Assembly (NCBI GenBank): GCA_963662715.1 | Contig: OY759724.1 | Span: forward strand, 210,001-242,000 | Direction of reading: 5' to 3' | Source: Candidatus Omnitrophota bacterium | GTDB taxonomy: Bacteria > Omnitrophota > Gorgyraeia > Zapsychrales > JANLHA01 | DNA: 32,000 nt | In this document: in pieces, positions 2,968 through 28,802 of the stretch | How positions within the stretch are numbered: position 1 is the first letter of the stretch | How the letters are laid out: every line of letters begins with the position of its first letter | Notes under the pieces: model-generated | What the model saw: the letters and a program-made list of their open reading frames with translations, nothing else | What the model was told of the DNA's origin: nothing | Databases searched by the model: none | Position numbers and translations under genes: made by a program

Positions 2968-3004
2968 GGTCCTCACTTGCGGTCCTCACTTGGGTCCTCA
3001 CTTG
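2968..3004 (-). repeat. three tandem copies of a 12-nt unit spanning the phoU stop codon; probable terminator element
   Basis: GGTCCTCACTTG occurs at 2968-2979, 2981-2992 and 2993-3004 (minus strand CAAGTGAGGACC). Copy 3 contains the phoU TGA. GAGGACC of each copy can pair with minus-strand GGTCCCTC (2959-2966), which is followed by TAACTTTTT on the minus strand. Confidence 0.8.
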
Positions 3005-3693: not shown

Positions 3694-3758
3694 GAAGCAC
3701 TCCTTTTCATCCTGTTACGGGACAGATATCCTCAGGCCAAGCAACAGGTCAGGCCGCA

Positions 3759-4517: not shown

Positions 4518-4520
4518 AAA

Positions 4521-5375: not shown

Positions 5376-5452
5376 AATTTTTCTGCTTTTTAAATACAGA
5401 TCTTTATAAATCCTCTACAGGATTTCTTGGCTAAATATCAAAATCAGACTCT

Positions 5453-6334: not shown

Positions 6335-6376
6335 GGAACAGCTGCTTATTCGATCAACAAAACTTCACCTCAGTTA

Positions 6377-7249: not shown

Positions 7250-7293
7250 TGATTCTTTTCCTTCCTTAACAAAGTTAAATTAGATTCCGCCTG

Positions 7294-8568: not shown

Positions 8569-8587
8569 TTTTTCTCCTTTCACCCAT

Positions 8588-8788
8588 TTAAGAAAAAGAT
8601 CCCAACGATTTCCTGATGGTGCGAATTCTGAATTCAGACATTTTAAGCGAATCTTTTAAATAACTGTCTTCAAAATTGTTGTTATGTTCCAAAGAATTCA
8701 ACAAATTCTGCAGACAGATAATTTCTCTTTGTATACTGCGAACGGTGTAGTCAAGATGCAGGCATGAAATGTTTTGACTTGAAACCAT
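8588..8788 (-). CDS. hypothetical 66-aa protein, first cistron of the porin-pst operon
   Basis: ATG at 8788 is preceded by GGAGGTGA with a 3-nt spacer (minus strand AAAGGAGGTGAATCATG; 5 nt from the GGAGG core). Stop lies 4 nt before the porin ORF. Predicted helical, with no family recognised. Confidence 0.45.
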   Translation of the reverse strand: MVSSQNISCLHLDYTVRSIQREIICLQNLLNSLEHNNNFEDSYLKDSLKMSEFRIRTIRKSLGSFS

Positions 8789-8820
8789 GATTCACCTCCT
8801 TTCTGTTCTTTAGAATTAAT

Positions 8821-8872
8821 CTTATATGCCGCTTGTGAGGAACAAATGAAGGGAATGTGAAAATCATGTAAA
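8821..8872 (-). promoter_or_regulatory. Pho-box array plus -10 element (PhoB-dependent promoter of small ORF-porin-pstSCAB-phoU)
   Basis: Minus strand reads TTTACA(8872-8867)-N5-TTCACA(8861-8856)-N5-TTCATT(8850-8845)-N5-CTCACA(8839-8834), an exact 11-bp phasing. Then 7 nt, then TATAAG (8826-8821). The array replaces a -35 element, as at PhoB/PhoP-activated promoters. Confidence 0.6.
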
Positions 8873-9031
8873 ACAGGGAATTATTCTTGAAAAAAATGAA
8901 ATTACCTGGGGGAATTTGTCTGTTTTTCTTTAAACTGGGTAAAATCCAGCCTGAAAAGGCTTTTCACAGACGCTAACGACAGAAGTGTTTTGATAAGATA
9001 AGTAACCCAGAAAGGGGGTCGGGACAGATTT

Positions 9032-10801
9032 TCAAGTCTTGGGAAGTGAAAAACTAAAAGTCGACCCGGCCCCCAAAGAACTCTCGGCAGAGACTTGGCC
9101 TCCCTGAGCCTGAACAATATGCTTGACAATAGAGAGCCCCAAACCTGTTCCTCCAAGCTTGCGGGAACGGGCCTTGTCTACCCGGTAGAAGCGCTCAAAG
9201 ACCCGAGGCAGCTCATTAGGACTTATTCCTATACCGGAATCTTTAATAAAAAACACGCAACACTCTTCATTTTCTTTAGCGGAAATTTCCACCCAGCCGT
9301 CCTCCCTGTTGTATTTTATGGCATTCTCTATCAAATTAAAAAATACTTGGGCAAAATACGTCCTGTCTGTCTTCATCTTTGGGAAAGAAGGGAGGATATT
9401 ATTGGTGATTCGAATATTCCGCTGTTCCGCAAGCGGGCCCAGGCTCTCAATTGTCTTTTCAACGATGGCGTAAACATCACAGATTTCCTGATGAAATGTC
9501 AATTTCCCCGACTCTATCCTTGCCAAATCCAATAAATCCGAAATGAGTTGCGCCAGCCTTCCGGCATTGGAATAAATGATTTTTATAAAATCCAAAGCGT
9601 TCTCCCGGTCATCGATGGCTCCGTCTATCAATGTTTCGGCATAACCTTTGATGCTAGCGATCGGGGTGCGCAGCTCATGTGAAACATTGGCGACAAATTC
9701 CTGCCGGATTTTTTCCAGCTTTCTCAAATCCGTAATATCATGAAAAACAAGCACCGCCCCTTCAATTTGCTTATCCCGTACAACCGGGGTAGCGTGAACT
9801 AAAAGCCTCTTCTCTTCTTCGAGGAAAACGGAAATTTCCTGTGTTACAAAACCACTGTGCAGGTTCAGGATCTGGTCGGTGATATGCTGAATCTCAATAT
9901 TCCGAATGACCTCCAGAGGCTTTTTCCCCCGCGGATCCCCCTCCAGGGAAAAAACATCCCTTAAAGGATCGTTAATTAATAAAATACATCCTTTAACATC
10001 AATAACGATCACGCCTTCGAACATACTCAAAAGCACGGCTTCCAGCCGCGACTTGTGCGCCACAACTTCCTCCATACGGGAGGAAATCTGCTCTGACATA
10101 TAGTTGATAAGCCGGGCTAAATCTCCAATCTCATCCGACGAATCGATAAGGACCCGCCTTGATAAATCACCGAAAGCAATGGAACGGGCGACATCAGAGA
10201 CTTCCTTCAAGGGTCTGGAGATAAAGACAGAGGCGGCATATCCTATCAGGAATGCAAAAATAAGGGCCAAAAACAGTCCCAGCAGTAAAAATTTTCTCAA
10301 AGTGTGGGAAATAAGCTGCATTTCAGAAAGAGGCAAAGCTAAACGAAGCACCCCCTTCTCTCCCTTGAAAGAGAACGGATATCCGATATAAAGCATTTGT
10401 TTCTGCAGGGTCGTACTGAAGCGCAGACTCTCTCCAATCCCTCCTCTGAGGGCAGCCTGAACCTCAGGCCGGAAAAGATGATTTTCAATATGCGCAAGAT
10501 CGGCGGCCGCGACATCGGAATCCCCCCAGAGGGTTCCGTCAGGAGCAATGATCGTAACTCTCAGTCCTAAGTCCTGGCCGATGGTGTCCGCCAACTGATC
10601 ATAACCTTCCCTGGAAACAGCCGGCAGACGGCTTTCTAAATATGTGAGACTCAAAGCCGCCTTGCTGATCAAATCGGCCTTAAGACGCTGGTAGGCATAC
10701 TGGGTCAATTTCGTATTAAGAAAAAAATACAAACCGACCAGAACAATGATGACAATCAGCGTGAAAATTATGGTGATTTTATGATGTCGATGGGCTTTCA
10801 T
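9032..10801 (-). CDS. phoR: PhoR-like phosphate-regulon sensor histidine kinase
   Basis: TM helix, about 135 aa of extracytoplasmic region, second TM, HAMP, PAS, H-box SHELRTP, and ATPase boxes NAIKYN, DSGIGI, GGTGLGLSIV. Overlaps the phoB stop by 4 nt (ATGA). Confidence 0.85.
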   Translation of the reverse strand: MKAHRHHKITIIFTLIVIIVLVGLYFFLNTKLTQYAYQRLKADLISKAALSLTYLESRLPAVSREGYDQLADTIGQDLGLRVTIIAPDGTLWGDSDVAAADLAHIENHLFRPEVQAALRGGIGESLRFSTTLQKQMLYIGYPFSFKGEKGVLRLALPLSEMQLISHTLRKFLLLGLFLALIFAFLIGYAASVFISRPLKEVSDVARSIAFGDLSRRVLIDSSDEIGDLARLINYMSEQISSRMEEVVAHKSRLEAVLLSMFEGVIVIDVKGCILLINDPLRDVFSLEGDPRGKKPLEVIRNIEIQHITDQILNLHSGFVTQEISVFLEEEKRLLVHATPVVRDKQIEGAVLVFHDITDLRKLEKIRQEFVANVSHELRTPIASIKGYAETLIDGAIDDRENALDFIKIIYSNAGRLAQLISDLLDLARIESGKLTFHQEICDVYAIVEKTIESLGPLAEQRNIRITNNILPSFPKMKTDRTYFAQVFFNLIENAIKYNREDGWVEISAKENEECCVFFIKDSGIGISPNELPRVFERFYRVDKARSRKLGGTGLGLSIVKHIVQAQGGQVSAESSLGAGSTFSFSLPKT

Positions 10802-11490
10802 GTATCATCTCTCAAACAATACCCGACACCGCGGATAGTTTCAATGAGATGTCCTGCAGATCCGAGTTTTTGACGGAGGCATTTGATATGAGTATCTACA
10901 GTACGGGTTGTGACTTCTGTATTCATCTCCCACACTTCACTTAACAGTTTTTCCCGCGACTGCACCCGCCCTCTCGTCCGCATCAGGTAAACGAGCAGAT
11001 TAAATTCCATAGACGTAAGGACGACGATATTTCCTTTAACAAGAACCCTGTGCCTCGGGATATCGATCACCATGTCGTCCAGTTCCAGGACGGCTTTCTT
11101 TTCCGAATGATCAACGGGATTTCTTTTCAAAACATTTTTGATCCTCAATATCAATTCCCGCACGCTAAAAGGCTTCACGACGTAATCATCCGCCCCCAAC
11201 TCCAACCCCACAACCCGGTCCACTTCTTCTCCCCTCGCCGTCAAAATAATAATAGGGATGGTTGACAGAAGAGCATCGGCCTTGATCGTCCGGCAGGTGT
11301 CAAATCCGTCCATTTTCGGAAGCATGATGTCGAGGATGATCAGATCGATTTCCTCATTATTCAAAGTCTCCAAGGCTTCCTCGCCGGTGATGACGACTGA
11401 GCACTTATACCCGGCCTTCTGCAGATTGTATTTTAAAAGCTTGGAAATATGAAGATCATCTTCAACGACTAAAACGTGTTCGATAGGCAT
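10798..11490 (-). CDS. phoB: PhoB-like OmpR-family response regulator
   Basis: Receiver domain (VVEDD, LIILDIMLPKMDGF, VKPF) plus winged helix (LTSMEFNLLVYLM, VDTHIKCLRQKL, IETIRGVGY). The ORF track opens at 11574, but ATG 11490 has AAAGGAG 8 nt upstream and gives the canonical N-terminus MPIEHVLVVEDD. Confidence 0.9.
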   Translation of the reverse strand: MPIEHVLVVEDDLHISKLLKYNLQKAGYKCSVVITGEEALETLNNEEIDLIILDIMLPKMDGFDTCRTIKADALLSTIPIIILTARGEEVDRVVGLELGADDYVVKPFSVRELILRIKNVLKRNPVDHSEKKAVLELDDMVIDIPRHRVLVKGNIVVLTSMEFNLLVYLMRTRGRVQSREKLLSEVWEMNTEVTTRTVDTHIKCLRQKLGSAGHLIETIRGVGYCLRDDT

Positions 11491-11680
11491 ATATCGCGCT
11501 CCTTTGGAATCTGAAATTGCTATAATCTTAACACAGATTTCAAAAGGGATGCAATAGCTGGGAATGAAGTTCACAAAAATATCACAAACGGAGCTCTTGC
11601 GAATATTTTGTTATCCACAGGGCAAAAACTTCTCACAAATCTATTAAAAAAATATTTCACGAAAATATTTATATATTTAT

Positions 11681-12869: not shown

Positions 12870-14474
12870 TTATTCGATATTACGAAACGGCAGATAATTG
12901 TCTTCGAGGACGACACTGCTTTTTATTTTTTGCCGTTCCTGACCGGCGCAAATACCGGCAAACACAGTCAAAATAATATTGATAGAAAGCAGTTCCAGTA
13001 AATAAGGCGTCTCGGCTGAGTCGCGGAAAACAGTCATGAATTTTGCAAGCCCGAAAAACGGAGACGGGGCGATCCCGTATTTCAAGAATAACGATGTCTC
13101 CGGCCAGACGGGCATGGAGGAGATATAGCCAAAAAGAGGGATAAAAACCCAAAGGACCAACAAAACCACCAGCATGATGATCCGGCTTCTGTGATGCCGG
13201 CTTAAATTAAAATACTCAAGGATCTGCCCGAAAAACCAGGGATATGTCAAAACAAATAACCCGATGATGAAGCACGTCCATAACGGGGACTGGGATACGA
13301 CGCCGTAAAGGATAACGGCCAAAATCACAATAACAGAATAACAAATCAACCAGGCAAAATTACTGCTGTGATCATGGCTATACCCCGAGGAATTTTGTCC
13401 CAGTTTCCTGACTCTCTTCCAGCCTTTCATGAACAGCAGGTAGCTCGGGGTGGCCATGTACACGCCGGCATACCCGAGAAATATTAACAGATAAACAAGA
13501 ATTCCGAGCGACAAGTCTCTTTCCACTGAAAATGGATCCCCCCCCGGGCCATTGAAGAATGTACTTCCGCCGTGAAAGACCGCAACGACAACAATTAACA
13601 ATAATAATTCCGGCTTGCTCAAAAGGGGGTGTTCCGGTTTTGTTATTCTCCTTTGCACCATACGGAACAGGAATATGATAAATGGTGTCTGTATCAAAAA
13701 CTGGAGAAACGGCGGAGGGATGTGCACACCAAAAAACATGTTCACATGCTCAGCCGGGCCGGTGAAGAACACCTCGCCCTGACTGACACTTTCCAGCATC
13801 AGGGAAAGATGCGCATAAGCCGGGAACCATGTTAAATGGTATGTGTAACATCCTTCCAGGGCAAGAAGCAAATGGCTTAAAAAGTACAATATGACAACGA
13901 AAACAAAAGCATTGGCGGCTTTACGTTTAGGATGATTCATCAGTCCGGCTAAAACTCCGAACAGGTTGTAGAGAAATGCGCAGCAGCCAAGGGCAAGATG
14001 AAAAGAGACCAAAACTAAAAGGGCTCGGAAAAAATCCGGAAAAATCCCGGCACTGAAAATCATAACGCAAAGTTGCAGGATAAAAATACAGCCGAATAGC
14101 ACCCACTCAACGGAGACGGCTCCCAGGCAAAGGCCCAAAACCTGGTGACCGGAAGGCGTCGGGGAAACACGGTGAAAATCCAGGGTCCCGCCGGAGACCT
14201 CCCGGGAGGCCATGGAGTAAGCTGACATGGTTCCGAAAAACAGCAGGATATAACCTTCCAGAACGCAGAGGGCAAAAATAAAAAAGGCTTGCCAGGGCCC
14301 CTTCCCTTTCAAGAATTCTTGTTGAGGTGTGGCCTCGATGAAATAGACATAGCAAAAGATCAGGCCTATGATCAGCAGAACAACAATGGCCCGGGAAAAA
14401 ATCTCCGATGGACGAAAACGCTCCCGCCAATTGGCAATAAACAAAGGATTATTGGCGAGGTCCCAGAATGTCAT
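12870..14474 (-). CDS. ABC-2-family-like transporter permease, double length
   Basis: 534-aa ORF with 12 or more hydrophobic helices. Start overlaps the upstream ABC ATPase stop by 4 nt. The N-terminal NPLFIANWRERFR and SREVSGGTLDFHRVSP segments resemble the N-terminal and ExxGTLE-type motifs of ABC-2 permeases. The C-terminal half has no recognisable counterpart. Confidence 0.7.
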   Translation of the reverse strand: MTFWDLANNPLFIANWRERFRPSEIFSRAIVVLLIIGLIFCYVYFIEATPQQEFLKGKGPWQAFFIFALCVLEGYILLFFGTMSAYSMASREVSGGTLDFHRVSPTPSGHQVLGLCLGAVSVEWVLFGCIFILQLCVMIFSAGIFPDFFRALLVLVSFHLALGCCAFLYNLFGVLAGLMNHPKRKAANAFVFVVILYFLSHLLLALEGCYTYHLTWFPAYAHLSLMLESVSQGEVFFTGPAEHVNMFFGVHIPPPFLQFLIQTPFIIFLFRMVQRRITKPEHPLLSKPELLLLIVVVAVFHGGSTFFNGPGGDPFSVERDLSLGILVYLLIFLGYAGVYMATPSYLLFMKGWKRVRKLGQNSSGYSHDHSSNFAWLICYSVIVILAVILYGVVSQSPLWTCFIIGLFVLTYPWFFGQILEYFNLSRHHRSRIIMLVVLLVLWVFIPLFGYISSMPVWPETSLFLKYGIAPSPFFGLAKFMTVFRDSAETPYLLELLSINIILTVFAGICAGQERQKIKSSVVLEDNYLPFRNIE

Positions 14475-15412
14475 GCGACCTCCTTCATGCCCATCTTAAA
14501 GAAAAGATCCTCAACATTGTCCTCTTTACACTGGAACCCGCAGACAGGAATCTTCCGCAGGACAAGCTGGGCCAAAATAAGGCTGGCGTCAGCCGGGCAG
14601 CCGGAAAAATCAGCAAGGAGGCCGCCCTCTTTCCTTTCCTCCACATGCTCCACGCATGAAAAGCCATGCAGCACACTCTTGGCTTCTTGAATCATTTCCT
14701 CCCGCACTTCCGACAAAAAGACAATTAAGCGGCCTTTCGACTGCACGTGTCTGCGGATGTCTTCCACACTCCCCGATACCAGCAACTTCCCCTGCTGCAT
14801 AATGCCTACGGCATTACAAAAATCGCTTAACTCAGATAAAATATGGCTGGAAATAATTACGGCCTTGTTGGCGGAGGCGACGTCTTTCAGGACATCGCGC
14901 ATATCTTTGCGTGCGATAGGATCCAACCCGCTGGCAGGTTCATCGAGGAGGAGGACATCCGGGTCAGGGATGAGGGTTTTGGCCAAAACAAGACGTTGCC
15001 TCATCCCCCGGGATAAATCCCGGATGAAGGCATGGTGTTTCGACTCGAGATTCACCCGGGCGACCCAGGATCTAATTTTTTTTGCCCGTTCTCCCGAAGG
15101 GATATTATAGGCGGCGGCAAAAACGTCCAGATACTCCCACACTTTAAGATGTTCGTATACGGGAGGGAAATCCGGCATGTACCCCACTCTATTTAAAGCT
15201 TTCTGCCGCTCCAGCTCAAGGTCATAACCCAGAACTTTTATGTCCCCGTAAGTCGGTTCTATAATCCCGGCAAGAGCTTTGATCGTTGATGTCTTGCCGG
15301 CCCCGTTAGGCCCGACTAATCCAAAAATCTGACCGGCGCTGACATCCAGGTCCAAATCATGAACCGCATTTGTGTTTTCATAATCTACGCGAAGTGAATT
15401 GACTTTTATCAT
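14471..15412 (-). CDS. ABC transporter ATP-binding protein (ABC-2/CcmA-type) with about 90-aa C-terminal extension
   Basis: Walker A GPNGAGKTS, signature LSRGMRQRL, Walker B LLLDEPASGLD, H-loop SSHIL. Confidence 0.9.
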   Translation of the reverse strand: MIKVNSLRVDYENTNAVHDLDLDVSAGQIFGLVGPNGAGKTSTIKALAGIIEPTYGDIKVLGYDLELERQKALNRVGYMPDFPPVYEHLKVWEYLDVFAAAYNIPSGERAKKIRSWVARVNLESKHHAFIRDLSRGMRQRLVLAKTLIPDPDVLLLDEPASGLDPIARKDMRDVLKDVASANKAVIISSHILSELSDFCNAVGIMQQGKLLVSGSVEDIRRHVQSKGRLIVFLSEVREEMIQEAKSVLHGFSCVEHVEERKEGGLLADFSGCPADASLILAQLVLRKIPVCGFQCKEDNVEDLFFKMGMKEVA

Positions 15413-17227: not shown

Positions 17228-18595
17228 TTACTTTCCCGCAGAAGAGGCATAAAGGAAAAGGGCTTTTCTCTGTGAAGAATCTTTGTATCGTGATACGGCT
17301 TGCGGGGAAGGAAGTTGAATGCTTTTGATATTCTTGCTTTTCAGATATTCTCTGGCGGCCTTATTTAATATCAGTTTCTTGTCTTGATACCCTATGATAA
17401 GCAACTGCGGGTTTTTCTTGCAGATCTTCCGGAGCAACGTCAAATTCATTCTATGGGATAACACTTTCTCATCCGAAGAAAGGCTGTTCTTAACTTTTTT
17501 GACCTTGCCGTCCGTCCGGATATAGACACTGCCCGGATAGGACTGCTGATGAATGATTATGCCGTTATCTGCCGCTAACTGAATATCCATGGCCTTGTCA
17601 CGGACGTCCGGGAGGGGACCTTTCTCATCCTGCTGCAATAAGGCCACGGCTCCCAAAATAACGGCAAAATCCCCTAACTGTGAAGGGACGATCCGGCAAT
17701 GGTCAACGCCTTTAAAAAAGGGATCTGCCGCGGAAACGCGCTTGACCTTCGGAAGCATATATTTGCCGCAGGCCTCTATCAACCCTCCGCCGAAGACGAT
17801 CATCTCGGGATTAAAAATATGGCGTAACGAAATACACGCTTTCCCCAAAACGACACAGACCTCATCAAGAATACGAAGGACATCCGGGTCCTTCCGCTTA
17901 ATAGCCTCAGCAATAACCGAACTTTTAACGAGGCCTTTTTTTTCTTTGACTAAACTCTTAATACCAGACTTCTTCTTTTTTCTAACAACGCTCCAGATCT
18001 CCCTTTCAATGGCCCGCCGGCTGGCTAAAGCTTCCAAAGAACCGTAAATGCCGGCGTTTTCCTTTCTGCTGTTATAGTCTAGAATCATATGCCCCAGTTC
18101 CCCTGCCGCCCCCTGTGCGCCGGAAACGAGTCTGCCGTCTATGATAATGGCTCCGCCGACACCGGTTCCGGGGAAAAGCCCCAGCACATGCCGCACATCC
18201 TTAGCAACCCCTAACCATTTTTCTCCCAGCAGGCCTAGGTTAACATCATTCTCCAAAATAACCTTAACACCAAAGTCCTTCTTCAGCTTTCTGCCCAGAG
18301 GGAAGCGGCTTAAATTCGTATTCGGAGTAACAAGAACTTCCGTATGATCCGGTTTGACGATTCCGGGTATCCCGACCCCTATACCGACAAAGCGGGCCTC
18401 CGGGACAGGCGACGCCTTCATCAATTCCCGGATCAAGGTCTTTATGGCCTGATATATTTGGGGGGACGTTGCATTTTGCGGAGTCTGGATCTTTTTCCGG
18501 CAGAGCAATTGCCCTTCCTGGGTGACCAGTCCCGCGGATATTTTCGTGCCGCCGATATCCACGCCTATATATACTGACTCTTTCATCACTGACAT
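17228..18595 (-). CDS. ROK-family sugar kinase fused to a C-terminal Mth938-like (DUF498) domain
   Basis: N-terminal GVDIGGTK, ENDVNLGLLGE and GTGVGGAIIIDGRLVSGAQGAAGELGHM are ROK/ASKHA motifs. Residues from about 335 to 455 (YPGSVYIRTDGKV...SHRMNLTLL...PQLLIIGYQDKKL...IQLPSPQAVSRYKD...ALFLYASS) follow the Mth938/DUF498 pattern. Start could be ATG 18586 instead of 18595. Confidence 0.85.
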   Translation of the reverse strand: MSVMKESVYIGVDIGGTKISAGLVTQEGQLLCRKKIQTPQNATSPQIYQAIKTLIRELMKASPVPEARFVGIGVGIPGIVKPDHTEVLVTPNTNLSRFPLGRKLKKDFGVKVILENDVNLGLLGEKWLGVAKDVRHVLGLFPGTGVGGAIIIDGRLVSGAQGAAGELGHMILDYNSRKENAGIYGSLEALASRRAIEREIWSVVRKKKKSGIKSLVKEKKGLVKSSVIAEAIKRKDPDVLRILDEVCVVLGKACISLRHIFNPEMIVFGGGLIEACGKYMLPKVKRVSAADPFFKGVDHCRIVPSQLGDFAVILGAVALLQQDEKGPLPDVRDKAMDIQLAADNGIIIHQQSYPGSVYIRTDGKVKKVKNSLSSDEKVLSHRMNLTLLRKICKKNPQLLIIGYQDKKLILNKAAREYLKSKNIKSIQLPSPQAVSRYKDSSQRKALFLYASSAGK

Positions 18596-18599: not shown

Positions 18600-19943
18600 T
18601 TAGACTGTTTCTTCTTCGGTTATCTTTAATTGTAATTCTTTTTGGAAAACTAATCTAAACAAATCGGATTTTTTTTCCACCCGTGCCTTTTCCCACTCGG
18701 AGAAATCATCTGCCCTTATCTCAAGAACAACCTGTCTTTTATCCACCCTTGCCCGCAAAGCTTTGACCGAATTCACGTGACGGCTGTCAAACCCGTCGGC
18801 CAATCTGAGAAGGGAAGCCAGTTTCTTCAGTTCCTCCTTCTTCCCGTCAGACAAATCCGAATAATATTTATGGGTGTTTTTCGGCAGAGCCCTTCTATGG
18901 TACCGTGCAACCAGCGCCACAATGACTTTCTCATCATAACTCAAAGGTAAATTGTAGGATTTCAGAATCATATCCCTGGACGTTTTATGATGACGGATCC
19001 GCCCTTTGATCCAGCCGATATCATGCAACAGGGAAGCCGACTGCAACAACAGGCGATGTCTGGGGGACAGCTGATGGAGGTCCGCCAGTCCGTCAAACAG
19101 CTGCAGCGTCAGTTGGGTCACCTGATGAGAATGCTCCTTTTCATATTCACACGATCTGGCCAGTTTTAAAACCTCCTGGATAACATCTTTTTCACTGGCC
19201 TGCCTCCAGACCTGGCGATTGATCTCATCTAGACTTTGACCTGTCTCAATGGAACGGATAATATCTTTAGGGAACTTTTTCTGCGTCATGGCCCGGATAA
19301 CGCTCTTAAGAGGATAGGAAATACGTCTGTTGCTGACACTGATCTTACGCCCGTCAATATCCATGACAACATATGAAGCGCGCGGGTCTCCGTCAAAAGG
19401 ACGTCCGACACTTCCTGGATTAACGAACCAGACATTCTTGATCTTTTTCAAAAAAAATTTGTGGGTGTGCCCGCATAAAATCAGGTCGGCATGACTTGTC
19501 TGCGCGAGCTGTTCAAATCTCTTCACTGGAGTATTGTCCTGCAAAGGTTCATCCATAGACTCCGGACTCCCGTGGGTCAATAAAATGTTCAACCCTTCTC
19601 TGGTGCATCGGACAGAACACGGCAAGTTCTGCAGATAATTCCGGGCTGGTTTTGACAGCTGTCGATACGTCCACTTGAATGAAAAATATTTTGACGGGGT
19701 CTTGCTGTTTTTCCATTTTCGCTGTTTTTGGGGGAATCTCAGGACATTCAGGTCGTAATTTCCGGCAATGCTGACCTGAGCTTGTTTCCGAATGACCTGA
19801 ATAACCTTCTGGGGCGCAGGTCCGTAGCCGACATAGTCGCCCAAAAACCATATCTCTTGAACGGACTGCGAACGGATATCACGCAGGACAGCCATTAAGG
19901 CTGGTAAATTGGCATGGGCATCAGCTAAAACGGCGACCTTCAT
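18600..19943 (-). CDS. metallophosphoesterase (YfcE/Metallophos_2-like) fused to a Ppx/GppA-type C-terminal HD module
   Basis: N-terminal half has DAHAN, GDYVGYG, GNYD, LTHGSP, CGHTH and NPGSVGRP (calcineurin-like phosphoesterase metal ligands). The C-terminal half is collinear with the C-terminus of the ppx product in this window (LHDIGW..HHKTS..VARYHRRALPKNTH..LASLLRLADGFD versus LHEIGM..HHKHS..VARYHRGAVPQKTH..LSSIIRLANALD). Confidence 0.8.
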   Translation of the reverse strand: MKVAVLADAHANLPALMAVLRDIRSQSVQEIWFLGDYVGYGPAPQKVIQVIRKQAQVSIAGNYDLNVLRFPQKQRKWKNSKTPSKYFSFKWTYRQLSKPARNYLQNLPCSVRCTREGLNILLTHGSPESMDEPLQDNTPVKRFEQLAQTSHADLILCGHTHKFFLKKIKNVWFVNPGSVGRPFDGDPRASYVVMDIDGRKISVSNRRISYPLKSVIRAMTQKKFPKDIIRSIETGQSLDEINRQVWRQASEKDVIQEVLKLARSCEYEKEHSHQVTQLTLQLFDGLADLHQLSPRHRLLLQSASLLHDIGWIKGRIRHHKTSRDMILKSYNLPLSYDEKVIVALVARYHRRALPKNTHKYYSDLSDGKKEELKKLASLLRLADGFDSRHVNSVKALRARVDKRQVVLEIRADDFSEWEKARVEKKSDLFRLVFQKELQLKITEEETV

Positions 19944-20848
19944 AATCCCCCGAACCAGGCATAGACATATTCACACATATTCTCAAAAGTGCGTTGCTCT
20001 TTCGCCTGTTGCCATCTTTCAAAAAATTGAATATATACGGTTTCTTTTTCCTTTTGAAGATACCCTTTGAGGAGTTTCCACAAATTTCGGGCAGCCTTTC
20101 CTTTCCCCGGGCTCCTTTGCTCCAAAATCATTATCTCTCGCAACCAAAGATCATAGTCATGAAAAACCCCCAATTGTCTGTGAAAAGTCAGCACGCTGTC
20201 GCTAAAGACATCCAACCCCTCATCGTACAGCAAAGATAATCCTTCCAGCGTATATCTCAGGTGCTTGGCGGCAATACGCATGTTGTGCAGGTCGTTGACC
20301 TTTTCCGGATATTGGGCGATGCCGTCAAATTCAACTAAACCAACGGCTCTTTTTTTGATTTTCTTATAAGCAAGCTTATAAATATCCGTTTCGCCCAAGT
20401 CCCTCACTCCGTCCCTGCTGTAATTCTCTATGTCCCGCCAAACCCGTTTGAGCTTTTTCTTGGCCAGCGCGTCGCCCATCCGGCGCTGCAACCGCTTTTT
20501 TTTATCATTTAATACAAACAAGGCCTCTTCCAGTATTTCCAGTTGTTCTTTCCTGTCGGTTCTTGTCCGGTACCCGTCCAAAAAAATAACAAACACATCC
20601 AAATCCCGGCCGGCAGACGTCGCTCCGGCGAGTTTACGCAGCTGATCATTCCAGGCCTCCCGCCGTTTGCGGGGGAAGACGTCCTTCCATATCCACAGGG
20701 CATTTCGCAGCCGTCTGATATTAACGCGCAGTTGATGCAGCGATTCGACATCCCCTGCCTCAACCCCCGGGATGGCCTTCTCAATCCTTTTGACATGCTT
20801 CAAAAGGCATTGCTCCGTTAATTGTCGTGTTAATGTTTTATCCTTCAT
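19940..20848 (-). CDS. CHAD domain-containing protein
   Basis: 302-aa helical ORF with the two CHAD signature helices LHQLRVNIRRLRNAL and LHNMRIAAKHLRYTLE. Overlaps ppk1 by 11 nt and the downstream gene by 4 nt. Confidence 0.75.
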   Translation of the reverse strand: MKDKTLTRQLTEQCLLKHVKRIEKAIPGVEAGDVESLHQLRVNIRRLRNALWIWKDVFPRKRREAWNDQLRKLAGATSAGRDLDVFVIFLDGYRTRTDRKEQLEILEEALFVLNDKKKRLQRRMGDALAKKKLKRVWRDIENYSRDGVRDLGETDIYKLAYKKIKKRAVGLVEFDGIAQYPEKVNDLHNMRIAAKHLRYTLEGLSLLYDEGLDVFSDSVLTFHRQLGVFHDYDLWLREIMILEQRSPGKGKAARNLWKLLKGYLQKEKETVYIQFFERWQQAKEQRTFENMCEYVYAWFGGL

Positions 20849-22871
20849 AATGTTTGATCATTTCATGCTGAATATCTTTATCATCTTCTTTGCCTTTGAG
20901 TTTTTCGTATTTCCCGTCAGGACAAAGGCGCCAGGACTTCTTGTGGTCTTTCCAATAGAGCTCCAGCAGGGACTTTAAATGCTCTTTGATATCTTCCTTG
21001 TATATTTCAAACAACAGCTCAACGCGCCCGTCAAAGTTTCTTCTCATCCAATCAGCCGATGATAAGAAAATCCGGGCATTATCATTGTTGTTGAACAAAA
21101 ACATCCTCGTGTGCTCCAGAAAACGGCCGACGGTACTTTTAACCTCAATATTATCACTGAGCCCCTGAACTTCCGGGATTAAACAACAGATGCCTCTCAC
21201 GATGAGCTTCACCTTAACGCCTGCCTTTGACGCGGAATACAGTTTTTCAATAATACGGGGATCTTCCAGCGAATTCATTTTGGCCAGGATCAGGCCGTTT
21301 TTATTTTTCTTCTGAAATTTCATCTCCCGTTCAATGAGAGAAAACAAATATTCGCGCAGGTCATTGGGGGCAGAAATGATCCGCTCCCATCCTGTCGGCA
21401 TGGAATAGCCGGTAATAACATTAAAAATTTCCGACACATCCCTGGCAAAGTCATCATTGGCGGTAAAATAGCCGATATCCGTATAAATTCTCGCAGTTTT
21501 CTCGTTATAATTTCCCGTAGAAAGATGCACATATCTTTGAATCTGTGCGTTCTCTTCCCGGACGATCAACGCCATCTTGGAATGAACCTTATATCCGGGG
21601 ATACCGTAAATGACATGGCACCCGGCTTCTTCCAGCTCCCGGCTCCATTTGATATTGCTCTCTTCGTCAAATCTGGCCTTAATTTCCACAAGAATCGTCA
21701 CCTGTTTTCGGTTCGCAGCCGCCTCTTTAAGGGCATCAATAATCGCCGAATCATTATTCGTGCGATACAGCGTCATTTTGATCGCCAGGACATGCGGATC
21801 TTTCGCGGCTGTGCGGATAAGGTCCACTGTGGGGTAAAAAGACTGAAACGGGAGATGCGTTATAAAATCGCCCTCTTTCATTCTTTCAAAAATATTCTCA
21901 TACTCAATCTTTCCGGGTAAATATCCCGGGAAACAAAACTCCGGCCGGTCAACCTGCCTGATCAGATCAAACAGCAGCGTCAAGTCCAGATCGTTATCAA
22001 GGAACAACACATCTTCCTTGGGAAACTCCAGGCCTTCCGAAAGCATCGCCAACACACTGGCATTGGCGACCTGTTCGGCCTGAACGCTGACAACATGAGC
22101 CACCTTTCTCTTTTTGACCTCTCCTTCAATGGTCTTAAGAAGATTGGGAGAGAACTCTTCGTCCACATCCAGCTCACTGTCCCGCATGACCCGGAACAGG
22201 AAAAAATTCTTAATCTTATATCCTTTAAAAAAAGACCCGAGATGCTGCCGGATAATGTTATCCACCAGAAAAAACACGTAATCCTTCTTGCCCGACGGCA
22301 ACCGGATAACCCGCGGGACATTCTGCGGAACCGGAACGATCGCCAGATGTTCGCTCCCTTTCTGTTTGAGGCCGACCGCAAAAGCCATGGTCTTTGAAGG
22401 CAGAATCGGGAAAGGGTGTCCGGGGTCTACGGCTAAAGGGGTGATAATAGGGTAAAGGATCGTTTGGAAATATTCCTCAATAAACCTTTTTTGTTCTTTG
22501 TTCAAATCCTTATACTGCTTGACATATATCCGGTTCTTTTCCAGTTCCGGGGAAAACACCTTTTGATATATTTCATAAGATTTTTTAATAAGGTTCGTGG
22601 AGACCCTCTTTGTCTCATGCAGGACATCAACGGAATAATGCCCGAAAGCATCAACCTGGTTTACCTGAGCGCTTATCAAATTCTGCAGACCGGCGATACG
22701 CACCATAAAAAATTCGTCAAAATTATTGGCAAAAATCGCCAGAAATTTTATGCGCTCCAGCAGAGGATGCGACGGGTCCAGACATTCCTCCAGAACCCGG
22801 GCGTTGAACTGCAGCCAGCTTAAATCCCGGGGAATAAACCGGCTGTCCTCACGTATTTCTAAATGGGTCAT
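20838..22871 (-). CDS. ppk1: polyphosphate kinase 1
   Basis: 677-aa ORF with N-terminal FIPRDLSWLQFNARVLEE...FLAIFANNFDEFFMVRIA, and PLD-like C-terminal repeats YKVHSKMALIV and GRFLEHTRMFLF, all characteristic of PPK1. Confidence 0.95.
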   Translation of the reverse strand: MTHLEIREDSRFIPRDLSWLQFNARVLEECLDPSHPLLERIKFLAIFANNFDEFFMVRIAGLQNLISAQVNQVDAFGHYSVDVLHETKRVSTNLIKKSYEIYQKVFSPELEKNRIYVKQYKDLNKEQKRFIEEYFQTILYPIITPLAVDPGHPFPILPSKTMAFAVGLKQKGSEHLAIVPVPQNVPRVIRLPSGKKDYVFFLVDNIIRQHLGSFFKGYKIKNFFLFRVMRDSELDVDEEFSPNLLKTIEGEVKKRKVAHVVSVQAEQVANASVLAMLSEGLEFPKEDVLFLDNDLDLTLLFDLIRQVDRPEFCFPGYLPGKIEYENIFERMKEGDFITHLPFQSFYPTVDLIRTAAKDPHVLAIKMTLYRTNNDSAIIDALKEAAANRKQVTILVEIKARFDEESNIKWSRELEEAGCHVIYGIPGYKVHSKMALIVREENAQIQRYVHLSTGNYNEKTARIYTDIGYFTANDDFARDVSEIFNVITGYSMPTGWERIISAPNDLREYLFSLIEREMKFQKKNKNGLILAKMNSLEDPRIIEKLYSASKAGVKVKLIVRGICCLIPEVQGLSDNIEVKSTVGRFLEHTRMFLFNNNDNARIFLSSADWMRRNFDGRVELLFEIYKEDIKEHLKSLLELYWKDHKKSWRLCPDGKYEKLKGKEDDKDIQHEMIKHYEG

Positions 22872-22873: not shown

Positions 22874-24415
22874 TTAAACAGGCTTTCTGATAACAAGTTT
22901 AATATCATTCCCGGAAAGCTCCTCAAAGAGCCGCTTCCGTTCGTTAAAATAGACGTTTTCCAGCGTCATCCCTTCATTCGTATAGGCGATCAGGGTAATG
23001 TCCCCTTTAGCGTTCCTTTTAAAATCGACTTTCTTTATCTTTTGCTTTTCCGAGCCATCCAGCGCATTGGCCAGCCTTATGATAGAGCTCAGCTTTTGAA
23101 CGACGAGCTGTTCTTCATTAGGAAGGCTGCCGTAAAGAACGTGCGTTTTCTGCGGGACAGCCCCCCGATGATAGCGTGCCACACAGGCAATGCATTTGAT
23201 CTCATGCGCGGTCAGCCGAAAAAGGCTCAAAGCGTTGATGATATACTCACTGTGTTTATGATGCCCCCGCGGATTGATGAGCATTCCTATTTCATGCAAA
23301 TACGCGGCCAACCTCAAGTACAATAAATGCCGGTCCTCTAACCCCAGCGCCGCCCCGACGTGGTTAAAAATCTCTTCAGACAAATAGGAGATATATTTCG
23401 CGTGTTTCAAATCCGAATTATACTTGCGGCACAAAAATTTTGCCACCGAAACAAGCTGATTCTCCCGGTGGTATTTCTGGTCCAATTCAAGCCCCAGGAT
23501 CGTATGCGCCAACAGGGCCTCCGAAAGGGATGTTTCGAGGATATAAATAGACCGCTTGGAGGTCAACTTGAAAAGCTTGTGCAGAATCACAGCATACCCG
23601 TCCAGAGAACTGGCCGTATCCGTGGAAATATTGTACTTCTGGGCCAAGTCATCCAGGTTCCCGCTCGTGACAAGGGAAAGGAATTCTTTGGACTCCCTGA
23701 ACTGCAGCTGAAAAAAATTGCTGCCCAGCTTCTTATGCGAAAGGATATTATGAAGAGCCACGGAATAGCTTTCATCGACCAGGATCACATCATCTATGTG
23801 GATATGGAAAAAAAACTTTTTGATGTTGAGAAGCTCATGTTCGACATACTCTTCCAGGGCCTCGTAAGTTTGCTTCTGGCTTCCGTCAATTCTGTTTTTA
23901 AATTTTTTCAATCTCAACGTTCCTATCGGAAGGCCTTGAGTGACCAGAGCAAAACCTTTCTCCAGCATCGACAAATCCAGGCTCCCCGCCCCCAGTTCGG
24001 CAATGATAAGATTTTTTTCATTGATCGGATAGGACTTCTTAAGCCGGTAAGACAGGTACGCATCAATATAATAAACGACATCACCGACATTTAAAACTTC
24101 AATGTCCAGCCCGGTCCTCCTTCGGATGGTATCCAGGAAAATGTCTTTATTTTCCGCCTCCCTTACCGCAGTCGTTGCGATGACCTTGATATCCGTCACC
24201 CGGTAATCAGAAATAACTTTCTTATACTGATTTAAGACATGAATACTCTGATTGACGATATCCTGAGTAATACGCCCCTGATAAAAAGTGCTTATTCCAA
24301 AACCGATGATATTCTTCAACGACTCTAGAATCTTGAATTCCTCTCCGCTCTTTTCCCCAATAATAAGTTTGGTGGAATTCGATCCGATGTCAATAACAGC
24401 TGCTCTCATAATCAT
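22874..24415 (-). CDS. ppx: Ppx/GppA-family exopolyphosphatase
   Basis: ASKHA motifs AVIDIGSNSTKLII and ELGAGSLDLS, plus a C-terminal HD module (LHEIGM, HHKHS, ARYHR). Stop is 2 nt before the ppk1 ATG. Start may be the third codon (ATG 24409), which has better GAGGA spacing. Confidence 0.9.
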   Translation of the reverse strand: MIMRAAVIDIGSNSTKLIIGEKSGEEFKILESLKNIIGFGISTFYQGRITQDIVNQSIHVLNQYKKVISDYRVTDIKVIATTAVREAENKDIFLDTIRRRTGLDIEVLNVGDVVYYIDAYLSYRLKKSYPINEKNLIIAELGAGSLDLSMLEKGFALVTQGLPIGTLRLKKFKNRIDGSQKQTYEALEEYVEHELLNIKKFFFHIHIDDVILVDESYSVALHNILSHKKLGSNFFQLQFRESKEFLSLVTSGNLDDLAQKYNISTDTASSLDGYAVILHKLFKLTSKRSIYILETSLSEALLAHTILGLELDQKYHRENQLVSVAKFLCRKYNSDLKHAKYISYLSEEIFNHVGAALGLEDRHLLYLRLAAYLHEIGMLINPRGHHKHSEYIINALSLFRLTAHEIKCIACVARYHRGAVPQKTHVLYGSLPNEEQLVVQKLSSIIRLANALDGSEKQKIKKVDFKRNAKGDITLIAYTNEGMTLENVYFNERKRLFEELSGNDIKLVIRKPV

Positions 24416-24963: not shown

Positions 24964-25698
24964 CTACTGGCGTTTCCTGATACAATTCCTTCCGGCCCGT
25001 TTGGCATCATACAAGGCTTCATCGGTAAGTTTAAGCAGTTTATTGACAGTCTCAACGTTGCCCTCATTAGAAGAGATGCCGAAACTGGCCGTGACTTTGA
25101 TCTTTTTCTCTTTATAGTAAAACTGCGTCTTCTCGATAATAGTTTTTAATTTATTGGCGAGGATTTCCGCGTTATTCATATTCGTATGCATACACACAAC
25201 GAGAAACTCTTCTCCGCCGAAACGTCCGAAATAGTCCGTTCTCCGGATATTATTTAAGATTTTCCAGGAAAAGTTCTGCAGGACATAATCACCGGCGTCA
25301 TGCCCGTATTTATCATTAATCTTTTTAAAATGGTCCAGATCAATCAAGATCACGGAAAAGGGGAATTTATACCTCTGCCCCGACAAAAAGGCGCTCTCGA
25401 GGAGCTCTATGATATATCTTCGATTAAATATTTCCGTCAAAAAATCCGTGCGGCTCGCTTTCTCCAGGAGGTCTTTTGTTATGTTTAATTCATCAATTAA
25501 ATTCAGCAAGTAAATCGTGATCACCGGCGTTAAGACAATCGGGGCCATAATGGAAATATAGATAGCCCCTCTAAATCCGATTGTGTCGAGTCTGAAAATA
25601 ATAAAGATAAACGTCGTGAGCAACACGGAAATCAGGACGCAAATGATCGTAATAAGAATGGATTTGAGCAAAGTAACTTTTGTGCGCTTGAAAAGCAT
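24964..25698 (-). CDS. membrane-anchored GGDEF diguanylate cyclase
   Basis: Two to three N-terminal TM helices, then a GGDEF domain with active-site GGEEF and an RxxD I-site (RRTD) five residues upstream. Confidence 0.9.
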   Translation of the reverse strand: MLFKRTKVTLLKSILITIICVLISVLLTTFIFIIFRLDTIGFRGAIYISIMAPIVLTPVITIYLLNLIDELNITKDLLEKASRTDFLTEIFNRRYIIELLESAFLSGQRYKFPFSVILIDLDHFKKINDKYGHDAGDYVLQNFSWKILNNIRRTDYFGRFGGEEFLVVCMHTNMNNAEILANKLKTIIEKTQFYYKEKKIKVTASFGISSNEGNVETVNKLLKLTDEALYDAKRAGRNCIRKRQ

Positions 25699-26336: not shown

Positions 26337-28802
26337 TTATTGCAGTCCCTGCACCAGACAACGGTAGGAAAAAAGGGCCAGGATATAAATTCCTGCGGCC
26401 AATATCAATATGGCATTAAACCCCAGGAATTGAGCGATAAGAATCGCCAGCATCGAAGCAAAGACGCTGAACCCGCTATTAATCCCCCAGGCCCATGGGA
26501 TCGCTTCCTCCACCTTTCGCCCTATCAAATGCAGTCCCAGGGGGAAATACAGCCCCAGGAGAAAGCCCAGCGGCAGCAGGAAGACACCGACAATCCCCAC
26601 CCGCACCAAAAAGGCCAGACCAAGCGCCTGCTCAGTTAACGAGGGGCCGATAGTCATGAGAAAGACGAGATAGCCGACAAGCAGGGCTGTGGCCGTATAA
26701 ATCAGTTTCAAGTGGCTCTTAAAAATCTTCTCCAATACAGGCAACGCATAACTCCCGATACCCGCCGATATAAGCAACATGGCCAGGATAATGCTGATAG
26801 AATAAATCGGGCTGCCCAACAACAAAACGAACTTCTGCATCATGGGGATCTCAATAAACATAAATCCCCACCCCAGGCAGGCAAAGTAGGAAATAAACGG
26901 CAGGATGCTCGCGGAAGGCAGGGCCCGGATGTTGGTTCTTTTAAAAAGCCACAACGGCCATAAAATAAAGAGCAAAATAAAGACAAGGGCCTGAAGCAAC
27001 ACAATGATCTGCGTCATAAACATGATGGATCCCAAATGGTGATGGTGCGAAACTTTAAAAGGGTTGAACGAATTCAGTTTGTAATATTTATAAAAGAACG
27101 GGGCATCATCGGTCACAACAGAAATATCATAGGGATAGTTTTTTCGCCATTTGGCTAAACGGTCATTTTGAAAGTCCCGGGCATACTGGCTGAAATAATT
27201 GACGGGGTGTTTGTTGATTTTTGTCCAAATATCCCCGGGATAAACGGGGACCGTCCGGTGCTTCCTGAAATAATCAAAAACTTTTGCGGTTTCCGCCGCT
27301 GTGAAAGGGGTCTTCTTAATTAAGATAATCGACCACCAGGTCACATGATCCCCGATAATAATATGCTCCCAGGGCCTGGCGGCACCGGTTTCCTTTAAAG
27401 CGTCAAGGGCGATAGCATAGAGACGCAAGGTCTCCCGGGGCTGCTCCGGGAACAGCCAGCGGTTAAAATTAACGACGCCGTCGTCTTTAATAACGCGCAA
27501 ATAATCCAGGAGGGCATTCTTCGTATAAAGGTAACTTTCGGCATAGGCATACGCTCCGGAGGTTAACCCCGAAAACGTATCAACCCCGTTCAAAACAATC
27601 AAATCAAAAGAATCCGGGGGCAAATTCTTCACGAGATGACGGCCGTCCACGTTGAAAACTTTTGTCTGGTCCAGAGTATAAACGCCTCCCGAGTATTCAT
27701 ACATCCTTCCTCCGGGAGACAGGGCCTGCACAATGGCAGGATTAATTTCCGCACCAAGAATTGTCCCGGCTCCGTGACTCTTCGCCATGAAAATATCCCG
27801 CCCTCCGCCGGTGCCGATGATAACGACATCCGGACGATCAAAAAGCACATAGGGCACTTCCATGCCCTGGCTGAACAATCTGAGCTTTGACCGGTGTTCG
27901 GCCAGGCCTTCCGGAGAGAGGCGGTAAATAGGCGCGCCGGCCAAATAATTCGTTGTTATGTAGGAAAATTCCGGCCGGGGGATGACATTGATTTCAAAGG
28001 TGCCTATCGATGTTGAGGACAACAGTTCCTGAGCCTGCGGATCAACCATCCTGAAGATATCGGTCCGGCCCAAAGGATGCCATTGCGACAAAAGACGTTC
28101 GTACTGATGCGGCTTATAGGCTCCCGGGATCCATTCCCACCCTTTATTCTTGTCGATCGTATAATCGTCTGTTTCCGGGACCGTCATAAAAATAAAAGGG
28201 ATGGCCACCAGAAAAATGACAGCCAGTATGATTCTTTTCCTCGGGATCAGGGTCCAGAAAGCCAAAAATAGACACACCCAGCAGAGCAACAGCAGCGAAT
28301 GTGTCACCTGAAAGGAATTGATCAGGAAAAAAAACATGAAGGCCCCGGTCCCGGCCCCCAGCAGATCAAAAAAATACAATCTTGACGACCGCGTGGCGTG
28401 AAACGTAAACACATAAACGATGAGGAATCCTATCAGGGTAAAAGGAACGGCAAACAACGTGTAGGCCCATAACAAAACGGACATCGAAGAGAAACTCACC
28501 AATATCTGAGCAACGTCGTCCACGCAAATCGGAAGATATCCGATCCCCACAGTACAAATATAACCGTAGCAGGCCATCTTGATAAGAGCATAGCCGATAA
28601 CCTTATCCGGCTTAAGTCTGGAAAGATAATCTTTGAGGATAAAAACGATATTAGCCCCTATCCCGTAACCCAGGATAGCAAACGGGATGACAATATAGAC
28701 CACATGGTTCCAGGTCTTGAGGCTGAGAATCCTGGTTAGAAAAAGTTCCAGATTGATCGCGTAAAACGAGACAAAACAGATAATGAAATAGAGTTTAAAC
28801 AC
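26337..28802 (-). CDS. polytopic membrane protein with central spermidine-synthase-like (class I methyltransferase-fold) domain
   Basis: 821-aa ORF (GTG start) with about 7 TM helices, then VVIIGTGGGRDIFMAKSHGAGTILGAEINPAIV and FDLIVLNGVD...LRVIKDDGVVNF (SpeE-like nucleotide-binding and acidic-loop motifs), then a soluble region and about 6 more TM helices. Confidence 0.8.
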   Translation of the reverse strand: MFKLYFIICFVSFYAINLELFLTRILSLKTWNHVVYIVIPFAILGYGIGANIVFILKDYLSRLKPDKVIGYALIKMACYGYICTVGIGYLPICVDDVAQILVSFSSMSVLLWAYTLFAVPFTLIGFLIVYVFTFHATRSSRLYFFDLLGAGTGAFMFFFLINSFQVTHSLLLLCWVCLFLAFWTLIPRKRIILAVIFLVAIPFIFMTVPETDDYTIDKNKGWEWIPGAYKPHQYERLLSQWHPLGRTDIFRMVDPQAQELLSSTSIGTFEINVIPRPEFSYITTNYLAGAPIYRLSPEGLAEHRSKLRLFSQGMEVPYVLFDRPDVVIIGTGGGRDIFMAKSHGAGTILGAEINPAIVQALSPGGRMYEYSGGVYTLDQTKVFNVDGRHLVKNLPPDSFDLIVLNGVDTFSGLTSGAYAYAESYLYTKNALLDYLRVIKDDGVVNFNRWLFPEQPRETLRLYAIALDALKETGAARPWEHIIIGDHVTWWSIILIKKTPFTAAETAKVFDYFRKHRTVPVYPGDIWTKINKHPVNYFSQYARDFQNDRLAKWRKNYPYDISVVTDDAPFFYKYYKLNSFNPFKVSHHHHLGSIMFMTQIIVLLQALVFILLFILWPLWLFKRTNIRALPSASILPFISYFACLGWGFMFIEIPMMQKFVLLLGSPIYSISIILAMLLISAGIGSYALPVLEKIFKSHLKLIYTATALLVGYLVFLMTIGPSLTEQALGLAFLVRVGIVGVFLLPLGFLLGLYFPLGLHLIGRKVEEAIPWAWGINSGFSVFASMLAILIAQFLGFNAILILAAGIYILALFSYRCLVQGLQ

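Follow-up and report, generated by a model that had tools for sequence, protein, structure and literature searches.

The locus described here raises a simple question: what is the substrate of a protein that pairs the catalytic domain of a metallophosphoesterase (MPE) with the tail of an exopolyphosphatase, and that is encoded inside an operon for inorganic polyphosphate (polyP)? The protein, hereafter the target, comes from a Candidatus Omnitrophota bacterium (GenBank assembly GCA_963662715.1) and lies in a stretch of 32,000 nucleotides, contig OY759724.1 positions 210,001 to 242,000, which was analyzed as a whole and is called the window below. An earlier look at the letters of the window (the sequence-only reading) had described the target as a domain swap, in which the catalytic half of the exopolyphosphatase PPX was exchanged for an unrelated hydrolase, and had suggested a polyphosphatase, perhaps endo-acting, or a hydrolase of (p)ppGpp or Ap4A with ties to polyP. 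We propose that it is a polyP-directed phosphohydrolase, in which the MPE head would be catalytic and probably endo-acting, the tail and a CHAD-domain protein would hold the chain, and the ensemble would complement PPX. We put the probability of this reading at roughly 0.55.

The N-terminal half of the target is a member of the MPE superfamily, and profile, motifs and predicted beta-sandwich fold all agree on this assignment. Residues 1-197 match the Pfam family Metallophos_2 (PF12850, E=1.5e-28, 100.2 bits against a cut-off of 27), and the Metallophos profile is matched as well (PF00149, E=8.8e-15, 56.1 bits against a cut-off of 21.5). The five motifs of the superfamily read LADAHAN (with D8 and H10), LGDYVGYG (D36), GNYD (N62), THGSP (H124) and CGHTHK (H159 and H161). 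The sequence-only reading had reported a full set of calcineurin-like ligands in residues 1 to about 245, and in this it was correct, down to the place of every motif. All seven of these residues are invariant in an alignment of 30 homologues that are 41-66% identical to the window protein.

An AlphaFold2 model of the target, computed from a 30-sequence alignment, is confident (mean predicted local distance difference test score 93.5, predicted TM-score 0.75). Foldseek comparison of its N-terminal half with the PDB returned 3rqz from Sphaerobacter thermophilus, SapH (Spr1479) from Streptococcus pneumoniae (3qfm) and the Pyrococcus structures 1nnw and 2gju, at TM-scores (by target) of 0.79-0.85, with E=1e-15 to 1e-16 for SapH and 3rqz. 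These two are also found by sequence (3rqz at E=8e-24, SapH at E=7e-17). They share with the target the MPE subfamily fold with its helical cap and C-terminal helices, and the metal ligands. They differ from it in being single-domain proteins of about 245-270 amino acids without a Ppx-type tail, and their identity to the target is 23-29%. The N-terminal 200 residues of the target also pass the NCBIfam YfcE subfamily model TIGR00040 (68.3 bits against a cut-off of 56.25), but fall below the cut-off of the YfcE equivalog NF006988 (55.2 bits against 117). YfcE is a single-domain protein of about 180 amino acids, and its family name is silent on the C-terminal half of the target and on the polyP context.

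The C-terminal 200 residues are homologous, in sequence and in fold, to domains III and IV of the long-form PPX/GppA proteins (E. coli 1u6z and 2flo; Deinococcus radiodurans PPX, DrPPX, 8jgo). Residues 258-409 match Pfam Ppx-GppA_III (PF21447, E=2.1e-11, 44.4 bits against a cut-off of 27.3). The sequence-only reading had called the tail collinear with the HD region of the Ppx encoded nearby, and a BLASTP comparison with this window Ppx agrees: there is 32% identity over 134 ungapped residues (261-394 against 328-461, E=1e-14), and the shared blocks LH[DE]IG, HHK.S, VARYHR..P..TH and L.S..RLA[DN] all fall inside the alignment. When profiles are compared by hhalign, 51 target-type modules and 40 PPX C-terminal halves from related loci match with a probability of 100% and E=6e-58. 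The match covers 194 of 202 columns and reaches residue ~443, so that both domains III and IV of PPX are included in the homology. The alignment with DrPPX (E=1e-16) likewise extends to residue 518 of the 8jgo chain. The structure model gives the same picture, since its C-terminal half matches the C-terminal domains of PPX, namely the fragment 3rf0 over 201-205 columns (TM-score 0.72-0.77) and E. coli PPX over about 218 columns. Within residues 389-447, the model has strands at 393-400, 404-411 and 436-443, and helices between 416 and 433. No solved chain in the PDB matched both halves of the target, whether by sequence or by Foldseek.

Although it carries PPX domains III and IV, the target falls outside PPX/GppA, for it lacks the ASKHA domain that defines them: Ppx-GppA (PF02541) is present in the neighboring Ppx and gave no match in the target, where a binuclear MPE stands in its place. 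The NCBIfam equivalogs for PPX and GppA score 24-26 bits on the target, against cut-offs of 624-864. As an account of the architecture, the exchange of an ASKHA half for an MPE is thus apt. As evolutionary history it is not supported. Target-type modules are on average 29% (at most 34%) identical to the PPX tail of their own locus, compared with about 40% within their own class. In a neighbor-joining tree, 69 of the 71 modules without an attached ASKHA domain form one clade that is free of PPX tails. Moreover, the module also occurs as a separate gene product of about 205 amino acids beside an MPE gene of about 245 codons, or fused to CHAD without an MPE. A recent swap or duplication from the neighboring Ppx is rejected by the identity levels and by the topology of the tree. 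They point to the C-terminal module as an old, separate lineage rather than a recent copy of the adjacent Ppx. The target is thus more aptly called a fusion, between two partners of long standing, than a swap.

We also considered the intact HD dyad as a clean mark to tell fusions from PPX proteins. It had to be abandoned, since HD is found in 30 of 39 PPX tails from related loci, and nearly all of these tails keep H271, H307, H318 and H349 (target numbering). Most of them have E at the second site, and the HD pocket of the window Ppx is more degenerate than that of the target. Systematic differences between target-type modules and PPX tails are seen at D383 (Glu in most PPX), W311 and K425, and the target-type modules keep HD and D383 more strictly.

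The target is not a one-off, but a member of a large, widespread and uncharacterized family of bacteria and archaea. A search of 5.8 billion proteins, in which 8000 candidates were scored, gave at least 3191 matches at E<=1e-5. The best 120 matches all share the architecture of the target, and all but one, a partial protein, are 436-489 amino acids long; the sources named among them are Omnitrophota, Elusimicrobia, Planctomycetota and Anaerolineae. In the databases, the homologues are named only 'YfcE family phosphodiesterase', 'metallophosphoesterase family protein', 'putative phosphoesterase' or 'hypothetical protein'. A HMMER scan of 1.84 billion cluster representatives found 3712 clusters at E<=1e-30. 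Among GTDB species representatives, at least 579 stretches (of 600 candidates) were confirmed. The scan of genome contigs returned no relatives with the window protein as lone query, and recovered them with an alignment-based query. From the GTDB scan, 79 loci were kept, 74 of which hold an MPE or HD-module anchor. Their hosts include Planctomycetota, Omnitrophota, Chloroflexota, Synergistota and Desulfobacterota among the bacteria, and Bathyarchaeia, Methanomassiliicoccales, Methanolliviera, ANME-1 and Methanoculleus among the archaea. A literature search found no paper that characterizes a family with an MPE and a Ppx-III/IV module.

The setting of the gene speaks for a link with polyP. In the window, the target is the fourth gene of a tightly packed operon on the minus strand, in the order ppx-ppk1-CHAD-target-ROK, with overlaps or gaps of 2-11 nucleotides. 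The gap between ppx and ppk1 is 2 nucleotides, ppk1 and the CHAD gene overlap by 11, the TGA stop codon of the CHAD gene and the ATG of the target overlap as ATGA (with GGGGGA preceding the target start), and the ROK start codon follows the TAA of the target after 4 nucleotides. The sequence-only reading had placed the Ppx two genes upstream of the target; it is actually the third gene upstream, with ppk1 and CHAD in between. Location within a ppx-ppk operon is a further trait that the target shares with long-form PPX/GppA.

This arrangement recurs. Open reading frames were called in the 79 loci and searched with the proteins of the window. PPK1, PPX or CHAD lies within five genes of the anchor, or is fused to it, in 70 of the 74 anchor loci; CHAD is found in 59, PPK1 in 49 and PPX in 40, all of which are underestimates, since short contigs are common among the loci and only one CHAD sequence served as query. 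By our estimate, chance would place a single-copy gene so close in well under 1% of cases if the genome holds a few thousand genes. The tie to polyP that the sequence-only reading had suspected is thus supported by the operon, by the related loci, and by CHAD fusions in many archaea.

The fusions take several forms. The architecture of the window protein is the only anchor in 24 loci. A single CHAD-MPE-HD protein of about 760-830 amino acids is found in Bathyarchaeia, Methanomassiliicoccales and Methanolliviera, was confirmed with Pfam in four examples, and also appears as a second length class in the scan of cluster representatives. Other combinations are CHAD-MPE (for example in Methanocalculus taiwanensis), CHAD-Ppx_III, i.e. 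CHAD-HD (Methanoregula), and one CYTH-CHAD-Ppx_III protein (P0326). The MPE and HD parts are also encoded by separate genes, in either order: Anaerolineae have CHAD / MPE / HD, and Smithella-like Desulfobacterota have PPK1 / HD / MPE / CHAD, whose reading frames overlap. The longest combination, seen once, is an open reading frame for 1301 amino acids in a Bathyarchaeota metagenome-assembled genome (L027, 8987-12892, plus strand), which runs CHAD-MPE-Ppx_III/HD-ASKHA Ppx-GppA-second Ppx_III. It could be a real mega-fusion or reflect a stop codon lost in assembly. Recurrent fusions of this kind (a Rosetta-stone signal) suggest that the MPE head and the Ppx-type tail work on whatever CHAD and PPX work on.

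Some loci have the HD module without an MPE, as a stand-alone gene for about 205-235 amino acids beside CHAD, including one in the cultured Thermanaerothrix daxensis (MPE-less modules: loci L007, L009, L018, L060, L073, L077 and L079; proteins P0315 and P0326). In some Pirellulales and Sedimentisphaerales loci, a stand-alone HD copy and the MPE fusion occur together.

Together, these findings suggest a model for the action of the target. The binuclear-metal MPE head would cleave P-O-P bonds of inorganic polyP, most likely inside the chain. The C-terminal module would keep the enzyme on the polyP chain or granule, and its invariant HD-type pocket, with conserved basic residues, may grip a metal-phosphate unit. 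The CHAD protein, separate in the window and fused in archaea, would serve as a second polyP anchor. Internal cuts would expose fresh ends, on which PPX or PPK1 in its reverse reaction could act, and would set the length of the chains. We infer the polyP substrate, the endo mode and the split of labor between the modules. An endo mode is favored because the closest characterized relatives of the head are phosphodiesterases or hydrolases of phosphoanhydride chains (SapH, YfcE-type), and the internal phosphates of polyP are diester-like; the name phosphodiesterase is taken from the PDB titles of SapH 3qfm and MJ0936, and from the NCBIfam YfcE family name. It is also favored because the canonical exo-enzyme is usually co-encoded and in one case fused, which suggests a complementary rather than a redundant role.

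There is precedent for the individual elements. CHAD is an experimentally established polyP-binding module, and has been proposed to recruit substrate to fused polyP enzymes (PMC6537752). In yeast vacuoles, Ppn2, of the metallophosphatase superfamily, is exclusively an endopolyphosphatase, and Ppn1 is a Mn/Mg-dependent endo/exo enzyme (PMC7381174); that they cut polyP mainly internally, with Zn or Mn/Mg dependence, is another reason to favor the endo mode for the target. They are, however, eukaryotic and vacuolar, and Ppn2 is described as a PPP-superfamily protein (PMC7381174), while the target head belongs to Metallophos_2/YfcE. Apart from motifs shared by the superfamily, no match between Ppn2/Ppn1 and the target was seen at the sequence level, and no direct comparison was made. 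CYTH(TTM)-CHAD proteins such as E. coli YgiF offer another parallel, in that a metal-dependent phosphohydrolase head is combined with a polyP-binding module and found with polyP genes (PMC6537752, PMC4641920), a role in which CHAD appears as operon partner in the window and as fusion partner in archaea. YgiF differs in having a triphosphate tunnel instead of an MPE sandwich, in acting on short chains (tripolyphosphate), and in lacking the Ppx III/IV module.

Several points weigh against this reading. The function of every family member found is a prediction from sequence and context. The nearest characterized MPE, SapH, acts on nucleotides and not on inorganic polyP. The usual His of motif III (GNH(D/E)), which is not a ligand, is a Tyr in the target, and GNYD is the form in at least 90% of the members; the same position is Trp in SapH, which is active, and His in 3rqz. 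For the role of PPX domains III and IV in polyP binding, the model relies on older work on E. coli. The structural study of a PPX in PMC11234463 goes no further than an effect of the C-terminal half on the N-terminal cleft. Strict conservation of the HD set may also indicate catalysis by the C-terminal module itself, and the labor would then be split differently. Finally, sequence cannot decide between endo and exo cleavage. For these proteins as a family (an MPE head plus a Ppx-III/IV HD module, usually with CHAD), the bolder proposal that they are the missing prokaryotic endopolyphosphatase, docked on granules and cutting internally, is put forward tentatively, as a possibility that we would not yet bet on. 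In a stronger version still, the MPE and HD sites would both be catalytic and act sequentially on the same chain.

Among other explanations, the one that survives best retains a catalytic head but changes its substrate. The target would then be a SapH-like hydrolase of nucleotide oligophosphates (diadenosine tetraphosphate (Ap4A), Ap4/p4A, p4G, ATP or similar) that removes side products of polyP kinases or signals of polyP status, and the tail and CHAD would only localize it to polyP or sense polyP. The best characterized relative of the head (TM-score 0.83-0.85) is SapH, which hydrolyzes Ap4A asymmetrically, acts as a phosphodiesterase and splits the phosphoanhydride chains of nucleotides; annotation pipelines speak of a YfcE family phosphodiesterase, and the NCBIfam model for ApaH, the symmetrical Ap4A hydrolase, matches weakly (NF001204, E=4e-6). 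However, the ApaH match is confined to residues 2-85 and reaches 26.4 bits against a cut-off of 176, and target and SapH are only 23-25% identical. The basic residues K81, K85 and R181, in the cap and the active-site loop, are invariant in the family and would suit a polyanionic substrate; in SapH they are T, Q and Q, and in 3rqz R181 is replaced by Q. No nucleotide-binding domain or motif was detected in the target, and nothing in it was seen to resemble (p)ppGpp hydrolase domains. Moreover, fusion to two polyP-associated modules, and once to a complete PPX, exceeds what localization would need. We regard a nucleotide hydrolase as unlikely.

A different explanation places a second active site in the tail. 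The HD-fold module would itself be a metal-dependent phosphohydrolase, with HD cleaving polyP and the MPE trimming tripolyphosphate (P3), pyrophosphate (PPi) or end-capped fragments, or the reverse. The C-terminal half passes the Pfam HD profile (PF01966, 28.7 bits against a cut-off of 22), and it has the ligand pattern H...HD...D of the HD superfamily in H271, H307-D308, H349 and D383/D386. In the 30 homologues these residues are invariant, together with H318, H319, K320, R347, Y348, R350 and R380, and the ligand positions, with H318/H319 counted among them, hardly vary across 50 fused and 20 stand-alone modules. The occurrence of the module without an MPE, alone or fused to CHAD, beside ppk1 and ppx, suggests that it has a function of its own. 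On the other hand, genuine PPX tails in related loci keep H271, H307 and H349 in 39 of 39 cases, and D308 in 30 of 39, and we know of no report of a catalytic role for PPX tails. In the window Ppx, domain III (residues ~370-450) reads LHEIG and RLAN, with HE and N in place of the HD and D of the target; DrPPX and KpPPX also have HE, and the H. pylori PPX/GppA is degenerate. What is conserved may thus be a site that binds phosphate or metal-polyP and does not hydrolyze it, and a two-site enzyme would, in our view, be a rather improbable outcome.

Still less probable is a role as protein phosphatase or regulator of the polyP machinery, directed at the phospho-histidine intermediate of PPK1 or at polyphosphorylated proteins of the granule surface. 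The MPE superfamily does include protein phosphatases, and ppk1 is nearby in 49 of 74 loci. However, sequence and fold place the head in the Metallophos_2/YfcE/SapH group, which offers no precedents, and not with the PPP protein phosphatases, and fusions with a complete PPX and with CHAD point to a polymer as substrate. That the MPE fold is a non-catalytic scaffold for binding, as in Vps29, is scarcely credible: Vps29 proteins are among the weaker fold matches, but the best matches are active enzymes, and seven metal and catalytic residues that are invariant across phyla would be unexpected in a purely structural role.

The coordinates of the target, its domains and the surrounding genes are collected in Table 1. 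The window Ppx matches the NCBIfam exopolyphosphatase models below their cut-offs. The last gene of the operon, for a ROK-family kinase, was considered as a polyphosphate glucokinase, which is unsupported (58 bits against a cut-off of 250); its product misses the NCBIfam cut-offs for both glucokinase and polyP-glucokinase. A ROK neighbor is rare, being found in 4 of the 74 related loci. In two related loci (L006 and L053), one from Omnitrophota and one from Planctomycetales, a ROK+DUF498 (Mth938-like) fusion is likewise encoded next to the target homologue, on the other strand.

Table 1. Positions in the window of the target, its domains, the polyP operon and the pho/pst-like cluster; all features are on the minus strand.
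Feature	Position (strand)	Basis or remark
Target, MPE + Ppx-III/IV-like fusion protein	18600-19943 (-)	447 aa, ATG start, TAA stop (coordinates include the stop codon)
Calcineurin-like MPE module, SapH/3rqz type, with helical cap and C-terminal helices (residues 1-245)	19209-19943 (-)	Metallophos_2, PDB and Foldseek matches
HD-fold helical domain homologous to PPX/GppA domain III (residues 246-388)	18780-19208 (-)	Ppx-GppA_III, HD and DrPPX matches
Small alpha/beta domain equivalent to PPX domain IV (residues 389-447)	18603-18779 (-)	hhalign, 8jgo alignment, AlphaFold2 model, Foldseek
ppx, long-form exopolyphosphatase (ASKHA catalytic half + domains III/IV), operon gene 1	22874-24415 (-)	Pfam Ppx-GppA E=3.6e-24, Ppx-GppA_III E=4.9e-23
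ppk1, polyphosphate kinase 1	20838-22871 (-)	4/4 PPK1 Pfam domains, E=1e-73 to 1e-32
CHAD-domain protein, polyP-binding 'phosin' type, 302 aa	19940-20848 (-)	Pfam CHAD E=4.4e-34
ROK-family sugar kinase + C-terminal DUF498 domain, final operon gene	17228-18595 (-)	ROK E=2e-60; DUF498 E=1.4e-7, below its cut-off
OmpR-type response regulator	10798-11574 (-)	pho/pst-like cluster
HAMP/HisKA histidine kinase	9032-10801 (-)	pho/pst-like cluster
Porin_5 porin	7294-8583 (-)	pho/pst-like cluster
PstS-like binding protein	6377-7249 (-)	pho/pst-like cluster
Permease	5453-6334 (-)	pho/pst-like cluster
Permease	4521-5375 (-)	pho/pst-like cluster
ABC ATPase	3759-4517 (-)	pho/pst-like cluster
PhoU	2998-3693 (-)	pho/pst-like cluster

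A second phosphate-related cluster, pho/pst-like, occupies 2998-11574 (-), about 6 kb downstream of the polyP operon and on the same strand. Phosphate economy is therefore the theme of the entire region. Two further genes of the window have products without a Pfam match at E<=1e-5. One is an open reading frame for 821 amino acids (26337-28802, minus strand) upstream of a GGDEF gene (24964-25698), and the other encodes a multi-pass membrane protein of 534 amino acids (12870-14474, minus strand) and overlaps the end of an ABC ATPase gene (14471-15412) by 4 bases.

Parts of this picture are not new. The architecture of the target is already implicit in precomputed Pfam annotations. According to the account in PMC4641920, CHAD in 'bacterial metallophosphoesterases' is to be credited to the original CHAD paper (Iyer & Aravind 2002); by that account, computational work had thus come upon the association of CHAD with MPE two decades ago. 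Three elements appear to be new: that the Ppx-III/IV tail is recognized as belonging to a conserved triad together with MPE and CHAD, that this triad is so broadly linked to ppk1/ppx, and that a specific function is predicted.

The prediction concerns a gap in the current view of polyP metabolism. Prokaryotic polyP turnover is at present explained by PPK1/PPK2 and the exo-acting PPX/GppA. Endopolyphosphatase activity was reported long ago in archaeal extracts, and our literature search found no gene assigned to it. Strong endopolyphosphatase activity is described for organisms from archaea to mammals, unlike bacteria (PMC12210182). Haloferax volcanii, which is without PPX, has a Mn2+/Co2+-dependent polyP-degrading activity with no assigned gene (PMC13318637). 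Such a metal preference would suit a metallophosphoesterase.

Because of its conservation across phyla, its build from an MPE, a PPX-type tail and CHAD, and its setting in ppk1/ppx clusters, the family is a good candidate, and one that is cheap to test, for a new class of polyphosphatase in prokaryotes. If the endopolyphosphatase reading is true, it would provide a gene for the activity in archaeal extracts, and bacteria could no longer be regarded as having exo-acting PPX alone. Confirmation of the candidate would also give a handle on the actual role of PPX domains III and IV, and assign a function to thousands of proteins that are now labeled 'YfcE family phosphodiesterase' or 'CHAD domain-containing protein'. 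For anaerobic bacteria and archaea, among them Omnitrophota, Planctomycetota, Anaerolineae, Bathyarchaeia and methanogens, models of how polyP granules are mobilized would then have to change.

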